Positions 17,503-30,774 of a DNA stretch of 64,000 nucleotides are shown in pieces (the first letter of the stretch is position 1; each line of letters opens with the position of its first letter). The stretch lies in the NCBI RefSeq assembly GCF_022846255.1, contig NZ_AP025682.1, one strand, 5' to 3'. Origin of the DNA: Escherichia coli (GTDB lineage Bacteria; Pseudomonadota; Gammaproteobacteria; Enterobacterales; Enterobacteriaceae). The position numbers were made by a program, and so were the translations under genes. The notes beneath the pieces are model-generated. The model worked only from the letters and a program-made list of their open reading frames with translations, did no database searches and was not told the DNA's origin.

Positions 17503-18153
17503 TTAGTCTTTATCTGCCGGACTTAACGTCACTGAAGAGAGATAATTCAGCAGAGCAATATCGTTCTCGACACCCAGCTTCATCATCGCAGATTTCTTCT
17601 GGCTACTGATGGTTTTGATACTGCGGTTCAGCTTTTTAGCGATCTCGGTCACCAGGAAACCTTCCGCAAACAGGCGTAGAACTTCACTCTCTTTTGGCGA
17701 GAGACGCTTGTCACCGTAACCACCAGCACTGATTTTTTCCAACAGGCGAGAAACGCTTTCCGGGGTAAATTTCTTCCCTTTCTGCAGCGCGGCGAGAGCT
17801 TTCGGCAGATCGGTCGGTGCACCTTGTTTCAGCACGATCCCTTCGATATCCAGATCCAATACCGCACTAAGAATCGCCGGGTTGTTGTTCATGGTCAGAA
17901 CAATGATCGACAGGCTTGGGAAATGGCGCTTGATGTACTTGATTAAGGTAATGCCATCGCCGTACTTATCGCCAGGCATGGAGAGATCGGTAATCAACAC
18001 ATGCGCATCCAGTTTCGGCAGGTTGTTGATCAGTGCTGTAGAGTCTTCAAATTCGCCGACAACATTCACCCACTCAATTTGCTCAAGTGATTTGCGAATA
18101 CCGAACAAGACTATCGGATGGTCATCGGCAATAATTACGTTCATATTGTTCAT
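17503..18153 (-). CDS. rcsB: Response regulator RcsB
   Basis: 216 aa from MNNMNVIIADDHPIVLFGIRKSL; LuxR-type HTH C-terminus. Confidence 0.95.
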   Translation of the reverse strand: MNNMNVIIADDHPIVLFGIRKSLEQIEWVNVVGEFEDSTALINNLPKLDAHVLITDLSMPGDKYGDGITLIKYIKRHFPSLSIIVLTMNNNPAILSAVLDLDIEGIVLKQGAPTDLPKALAALQKGKKFTPESVSRLLEKISAGGYGDKRLSPKESEVLRLFAEGFLVTEIAKKLNRSIKTISSQKKSAMMKLGVENDIALLNYLSSVTLSPADKD

Positions 18154-29872: not shown

Positions 29873-30130
29873 TTTTTTGCTTTCCTTCTTCATTTATAGG
29901 TTTTCACCGATGATGACGCTGAAGGTTAACATATTCATCAGATTTATTAATTTGCTTTATGAATAACTTAAAGAACATTCAGATAATTTTACCTGCTCTT
30001 TTAGTGTTAAATTCTGATGAGAAAACAAACCAGCAGAAATATCTCTGGCGAATTAATCGATATATAAATATGTTTATAACCATTTGAAATGTGAGCAAAA
30101 GCCCGTTTTTGCCACGCTTCCCGCCACTCT

Positions 30131-30166
30131 TTTGATCCTGCTACAGGTTTTACCCCGATCGGGGTA
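30131..30166 (+). promoter_or_regulatory. napF promoter control region: NarP/NarL 7-2-7 site with putative FNR site 20 bp upstream
   Basis: Perfect 7-2-7 palindrome TACCCCGATCGGGGTA (30151-30166) matching NarL/NarP heptamer TACYYMT; TTGATCCTGCTACA (30132-30145) has a good FNR left half-site but a poor right half-site. Confidence 0.5.
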
Positions 30167-30279
30167 TGCATCTTTGACACATCCTTTAATATCTTAGCGG
30201 CTATAAAAATGGCTTATTAATTATGCGGTTTATTTGGTCGCTCTCAATTTTCAGAGCGCGTTAATGATGGAAGGTCAAT

Positions 30280-30774
30280 GTGAAGATTGATGCATCCCGT
30301 CGGGGCATACTCACTGGTCGCTGGCGCAAAGCCAGTAACGGTATCCGTCCGCCCTGGTCCGGTGATGAATCTCATTTTCTGACCCATTGCACCCGCTGCG
30401 ACGCCTGTATTAATGCTTGTGAAAACAACATTCTGCAACGCGGCGCGGGTGGCTATCCGAGCGTTAATTTCAAAAATAACGAGTGCAGCTTCTGTTACGC
30501 CTGCGCGCAGGCTTGCCCCGAATCGCTATTTTCTCCGCGCCACACCAGGGCCTGGGATTTGCAGTTCACCATTGGGGACGCGTGCCTGGCGTATCAGTCA
30601 GTTGAATGCCGCCGCTGTCAGGATAGCTGTGAGCCAATGGCAATTATCTTTCGCCCGACGCTCTCCGGGATCTACCAGCCGCAACTTAATAGCCAACTTT
30701 GCAACGGATGTGGAGCATGTGCAGCCAGCTGTCCGGTATCAGCCATAACTGCGGAGTATCTCCATGCACACTAA
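30280..30774 (+). CDS. napF: Ferredoxin-type protein NapF
   Basis: 164-aa ORF with multiple CxxCxxCxxxCP 4Fe-4S motifs; GTG start. Confidence 0.9.
   Translation: MKIDASRRGILTGRWRKASNGIRPPWSGDESHFLTHCTRCDACINACENNILQRGAGGYPSVNFKNNECSFCYACAQACPESLFSPRHTRAWDLQFTIGDACLAYQSVECRRCQDSCEPMAIIFRPTLSGIYQPQLNSQLCNGCGACAASCPVSAITAEYLHAH

Follow-up and report, generated by a model that had tools for sequence, protein, structure and literature searches.

The napF control region of an Escherichia coli chromosome: known FNR and NarP sites located by sequence

The DNA upstream of napF in the window (the whole 64,000-nucleotide stretch that was analysed) is almost certainly the control region of the E. coli napFDAGHBC operon, which encodes the periplasmic nitrate reductase, with its established regulation by FNR and NarP and with a core identical to that of K-12. 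The initial finding holds up both in its position and in its interpretation, and it was already known. Dissection of the napF control region goes back to the 1990s, and the region is a textbook case both of an FNR site at the unusual position of -64.5 combined with a NarP site at -44.5, and of competition between NarL and NarP at a single site. The result has little discovery value and serves mainly as validation, both sites having been located to the base from sequence alone. It had two by-products: the FNR site has a degenerate half that three genera conserve as degenerate, and the yojO reading frame is not kept within E. coli. Our own observations concern the sequence, coordinates, identity to K-12, conservation, gene context and agreement with a ChIP peak.

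Locus and gene context

We compared the region with E. coli K-12. The window is E. coli chromosome, and in alignment positions 30076-30300, from the Crp-like site to the start codon, are 100% identical to K-12 MG1655; 8 substitutions fall in 29990-30075 and none in 30076-30300. Published K-12 results on the napF control region therefore apply here base for base, and the identification of the region as the napF promoter in the initial annotation, which had proposed a comparison with the published promoter, is borne out. The strain itself is not K-12: a 521-bp region is 98.3% identical to K-12, and yejO is intact. Of 5426 complete E. coli genomes, 5421 match the same 521-base region, in every case on the chromosome, where the annotations read eco, yojO and napF.

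The two genes that matter most for what follows are:

30280-30774, plus strand: napF, first gene of napFDAGHBC, with a GTG start at 30280 (TIGR00402, E = 2.7e-74; RefSeq agrees)
42454-43101, minus strand: narP, response regulator gene (NF007708, E = 2.4e-137, over ORF residues 11-225; K-12 annotation agrees)

According to the RefSeq annotation of matching genomes, napFDAGHBC-ccmA-H lies directly 3' of the control region, with eco/yojO on the other side; in the window the open reading frames after NapF are NapD and then NapA (TIGR01706). The order in the K-12 neighbourhood is mqo, eco, yojO, napFDAGHBC, ccmABCDEFGH, narP, and the remaining genes of the window are ato, rcs, ompC, ada-alkB, yojI, mqo and yej.

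The initial annotation had also remarked that, with narP lying beyond the ccm genes, the anaerobic nitrate-responsive unit looked complete. The position of narP was right. However, narP is convergent with ccmH on the opposite strand and forms a separate transcription unit, and narQ, narXL and fnr map to other parts of the chromosome. Published ChIP peaks place napF/yojO at 2.30 Mb, aegA/narQ at 2.58, narX/narK at 1.28 and fnr at 1.40 Mb (PMC3688515). Since the sensor genes narQ and narX, as well as narL and fnr, are thus hundreds of kilobases away, calling the unit complete is an overstatement.

Two differences from K-12 were seen beyond the nap-ccm genes. The ccmH-narP spacer (42420-42453) is 34 bp long here and contains one hairpin, GCCCGATGG...CCATCGGGC, which is common to K-12; the K-12 spacer is about 176 bp longer, the addition carrying REP-like sequence and the hairpin a second time. 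The yejO autotransporter ORF is intact at 43733-46012 (759 aa, TIGR01414 beta-barrel), the K-12 gene being a pseudogene interrupted by IS5.

The NarP/NarL and FNR sites

Two elements and one overlapping reading frame occupy the core of the region:

30151-30166, no strand assigned: NarP/NarL 7-2-7 site TACCCCGATCGGGGTA (TACCCCG-AT-CGGGGTA), centre 30158.5, at -44.5 relative to the predicted P1 start
30132-30145, no strand assigned: degenerate FNR site TTGATCCTGCTACA (TTGAT-CCTG-CTACA), centre 30138.5, at -64.5 relative to the predicted P1 start
30007-30171, minus strand: yojO, a small ORF of 54 codons, with its ATG at 30171-30169, overlying the NarP and FNR sites

The 7-2-7 element and the FNR-like element, described initially as centred 20 bp upstream of it, are exactly where they were placed. 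TACCCCGATCGGGGTA is a perfect 16-bp palindrome made of two inverted heptamers with 2 bp between them. The claim of a perfect NarL/NarP heptamer pair holds for the symmetry alone: both heptamers (TACCCCG) match TACYYMT at 6 of 7 positions, with G in place of T at position 7. Among orthologues, position 7 varies between G, A and C and position 5 between C and T, while positions 1-4 and 6 do not change. TACCCCGATCGGGGTA is the only 7-2-7 element in the 386 bp between eco and napF. Two other perfect 16-bp palindromes were found in the window, GATATTCATGAATATC at 40436-40451 in ccmF and GTGGATGATCATCCAC at 43053-43068 close to the 5' end of narP; a count of this size fits chance.

Binding of phospho-NarP and phospho-NarL at the napF 7-2-7 element is described in the literature (PMC9262595, PMC4549865), which puts the element at -40 to -49, with its centre at -44.5 (PMC4549865). 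Because the spacer holds a single 7-2-7 element and the published position is -40 to -49, we infer that P1 starts at 30203, the start that results when the centre of the element is set at -44.5. On this scale the -85 to +19 fragment, which gives NarP-dependent expression of napF (PMC9262595), corresponds to about 30118-30221 of the window.

The initial description of the FNR-like element as having a good left and a poor right half was accurate. Compared with TTGAT-N4-ATCAA, its left half matches at 5/5 positions and its right half (CTACA against ATCAA) at 2/5. Matches with up to 3 mismatches to this consensus number 338 in the window, against 247 expected, or about one per 190 bp, and judged by its letters alone the FNR-like element is no better than hundreds of them. 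Indeed, neither motif is remarkable by itself in 64 kb; the case is made by the joint pattern, the location, the conservation and the ChIP peak. Exactly 20 bp separate the two centres, and the pattern TTGAT-N14-TACYY-N6-RRGTA occurs once in the window, whereas shuffled sequences gave 0.08 occurrences even with 1 mismatch allowed. A one-mismatch match to the joint pattern at 17963-17997 (minus strand) falls within coding sequence close to rcsB/rcsD by the K-12 map, and is probably due to chance.

We then consider conservation. A scan for relatives of NapF gave 7 usable loci (one from E. coli, one from E. albertii, four from Citrobacter and one from Leclercia); the other 14 hits were unrelated ferredoxins and were left out of the alignment. 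TTGAT is invariant in 8/8 aligned upstream regions, and there are no indels between TTGAT and the 7-2-7 element in these 8 sequences, so that the 20-bp spacing is invariant. The 7-2-7 element is kept as TACC(C/T)C-N-AT-N-GGGGTA in E. albertii, Citrobacter and Leclercia. When only Citrobacter and Leclercia are compared with the window, identity reaches 0.89-1.00 in TTGAT, the 7-2-7 element and the -10 block; it is 0.54 in the leader, 0.44 in the region of the start, 0.57 in the stretch that separates the Crp-like site from the FNR site, and 0.22 far upstream. Of the 5421 E. coli genomes, 4947 have an 86-bp core with an identity of 99% or more, and the most divergent copy retains the 7-2-7 element and TTGATCC. 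The nap operons of ten other gamma-proteobacteria, among Yersinia, Pasteurellaceae and Vibrionaceae, are also predicted to be preceded by Fnr and NarP sites (PMC1805755).

The right half of the FNR-like element is itself conserved (0.80-0.82 identity) and is non-consensus everywhere: it reads CTACA, CAACA or CTACT, and is never near ATCAA. We tentatively suggest that its weakness may be under selection, the promoter perhaps being held as an obligate FNR-and-NarP AND gate. This possibility, somewhat doubtful at present, was raised by the observation that Escherichia, Citrobacter and Leclercia all retain TTGAT, the 20-bp offset and a right half, C-A/T-A-C-A/T, that departs from the consensus.

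In vivo, FNR ChIP-seq and ChIP-chip gave a peak at 2301669, labelled napF/yojO, with a PatSer ln(p) of -5.37 (Myers et al. 2013, PMC3688515 Table S5). This score is among the weakest motif scores of bound sites in a table that reaches -16.5 (PMC3688515), in agreement with a degenerate FNR site. In NC_000913.3 napF starts at 2303497, which places the centre of the FNR-like element at 2303638.5. The coordinate offset between the genome versions we take to be about 1976. Calibration on two strong sites of Table S5 gave 1979.5 (upp/purM) and 1926.5 (yfgF/yfgG). The converted napF peak then falls about 7 bp from the centre of the FNR-like element; peak centres in this dataset can be off by about 50 bp, and the peak by itself therefore does not resolve the FNR site.

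A second FNR-like sequence, TTGGTCGCTCTCAA at 30234-30247, lies in the napF leader at about +37.5, and could be the functional FNR site instead of the element at -64.5. It departs from TTGAT-N4-ATCAA at 2 positions, the upstream element at 3, and it shares the napF/yojO spacer with the ChIP peak. However, it is about 108 bp from the converted peak centre, conservation of its right half already fails in E. albertii, and the site is lost in Citrobacter and Leclercia. It also lies outside the -85 to +19 fragment, which still gives regulated expression (PMC9262595), and an FNR site downstream of the start would repress rather than activate. We consider a functional site in the leader very improbable, and retain the element at 30132-30145 as the FNR site.

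Conservation of the core could, alternatively, reflect a protein encoded by yojO rather than cis-regulatory sites. RefSeq annotates yojO over the sites in many genomes, and its first codons, MHTPIGVKPVAGSKE, are conserved. The frame, however, is broken after 15-20 codons in another E. coli, in strain MFDS1006657, and in E. albertii, Citrobacter and Leclercia, its start codon is GAG in C. werkmanii, and it has no match to an NCBIfam family. Conservation follows the binding sites and not the yojO frame, which leaves a coding explanation with an even smaller chance of being right than an FNR site in the leader; yojO is probably an annotation artefact over cis-regulatory DNA.

Finally, the notion that the 16-bp palindrome is a chance palindrome, an RNA hairpin or a terminator instead of a protein-binding site is the least credible of all: perfect 16-bp palindromes do arise by chance in a stretch of this length (the window has 3, where dinucleotide shuffles predict 1.27) and the 7-2-7 consensus is not enriched in the window (4 matches to TACYYMT-NN-AKRRGTA when 2 mismatches are allowed, against 2.6 expected), but this one has no T-run on either strand, gives no call in a terminator scan, is not at any gene end, keeps its outer TAC/GTA and C/G runs in three genera at a fixed 20-bp offset from TTGAT, and is named in the literature as a NarL/NarP site (PMC9262595, PMC4549865).

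Promoters, leader and upstream sites

Around the NarP and FNR sites we assigned the following elements:

30190-30195, plus strand: putative P1 -10 hexamer TATCTT, at -13 to -8 from the predicted start at 30203
30187-30192, plus strand: putative P2 -10 hexamer TAATAT, shifted by 3 nt from that of P1, which it overlaps, with a predicted start at about 30200
30203-30279, plus strand: predicted napF 5' untranslated region of 77 nt, counted from the predicted start, with the Shine-Dalgarno sequence GGAAGG
30058-30081, no strand assigned: ModE-like operator CGATATATAAATATGTTTATAACC, centre 30069.5 (-133.5), with one mismatch to TATAT-N7-TAYAT
30087-30108, no strand assigned: candidate Crp site AAATGTGAGCAAAAGCCCGTTT, centre at -105.5, a weak match with 3 mismatches

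The -10 block, AATATCTTA, reads the same in each of the 8 aligned sequences. On the K-12 chromosome (NC_000913.3) the predicted P1 and P2 starts would correspond to 2303574 and about 2303577. A single assignment, the 7-2-7 element at -44.5, puts the FNR-like element at -64.5 and the ModE-like operator at -133.5. The napF gene reportedly has an FNR site at -64.5, a ModE site at -133.5 and dual overlapping promoters, P1 and P2. The agreement in these three respects is a consistency check against these reported values. The spacing that the initial annotation had compared with the napF P1 architecture accordingly fits, for the FNR-like element by its match to the reported -64.5 and for the 7-2-7 element by the published -40 to -49.

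A sigma-70 scan of 29880-30300 called no plus-strand promoter, as is expected for an activator-dependent promoter without a -35 element. Promoter-like sites in the same interval number 2, against 1.8 expected. One sigma-70-like sequence, TTGAGA-16-CATAAT (10/12 positions), was seen at 30247-30220 on the minus strand, running antisense through the napF promoter toward yojO.

Further upstream, napF is known to be activated by ModE (PMC8139620). ModE-like matches of the quality of CGATATATAAATATGTTTATAACC amount to 4 strand-hits in the window, and the operator is conserved in Escherichia and Citrobacter and absent in Leclercia. The Crp-like block is conserved at 0.81-0.86 across genera. At napF a Crp site is said to lie upstream of the Fnr site, and the assignment of AAATGTGAGCAAAAGCCCGTTT as that site is a candidate one.

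In the leader, the block of the Shine-Dalgarno sequence and start codon is conserved across the aligned sequences. No conserved secondary structure was found in the napF leader, the consensus fold energy being -1.05 kcal/mol. A scan for the IscR type-2 motif was uninformative, with 120 matches against 130 expected and one 2-mismatch match at 30208-30232.

Regulatory logic and related promoters

For protein binding, start sites and the logic of activation and antagonism we rely on the literature. At napF, FNR and phospho-NarP induce, and phospho-NarL blocks the binding of phospho-NarP (PMC9262595). Placed on the window, this logic would run as follows. Under anaerobiosis FNR would bind its weak site at 30132-30145 (-64.5), and in the presence of nitrate or nitrite phospho-NarP would bind the 7-2-7 element at 30151-30166 (-44.5), abutting the -35 position. 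The two proteins would jointly activate P1 (-10 TATCTT, start near 30203), which P2, with a start about 3 nt upstream, would overlap. Phospho-NarL would occupy the same 7-2-7 element without activating, and at high nitrate would thereby antagonise NarP. ModE (-133.5) and, probably, Crp (about -105.5) would add input from further upstream.

The closest known system is napF of K-12 itself (aeg-46.5; Choe & Reznikoff 1993; Darwin & Stewart 1995; Darwin et al. 1998; Stewart et al. 2003), which has the same flanking genes. It shares the 7-2-7 element, the degenerate FNR site lying 20 bp further upstream, and the overlapping -10 hexamers; its ModE-like operator, CGCTATATAAATATATTTATAACC, differs from CGATATATAAATATGTTTATAACC by 2 of the 8 upstream substitutions. 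For napF of Haemophilus influenzae Rd, it is reported that Fnr, bound upstream in a class I-like position, acts in synergy with phospho-NarP, that the sites are at -81.5 and -42.5, and that NarL activates as NarP does. If these features are right, the two promoters share an upstream Fnr site and a phospho-NarP site near -42 to -45, and differ in that here the offset is 20 bp (-64.5/-44.5) and NarL antagonises.

Other E. coli promoters that FNR and NarL/NarP co-regulate are built from the same parts. Those of nirB, nrfA, narG and yeaR likewise combine FNR with TACYYMT heptamers arranged as 7-2-7 sites, the yeaR 7-2-7 site being near -42 (PMC4549865). At nirB, nrfA and narG, FNR takes a class II position (-41.5) and the Nar sites lie upstream of it, whereas at napF this order is inverted. 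The FNR motifs of these three promoters are, in addition, strong, in contrast to the weak site of napF: their PatSer ln p values are -16.5 (nirB), -13.3 (narG) and -10.3 (nrfA), compared with -5.4 for napF (PMC3688515).
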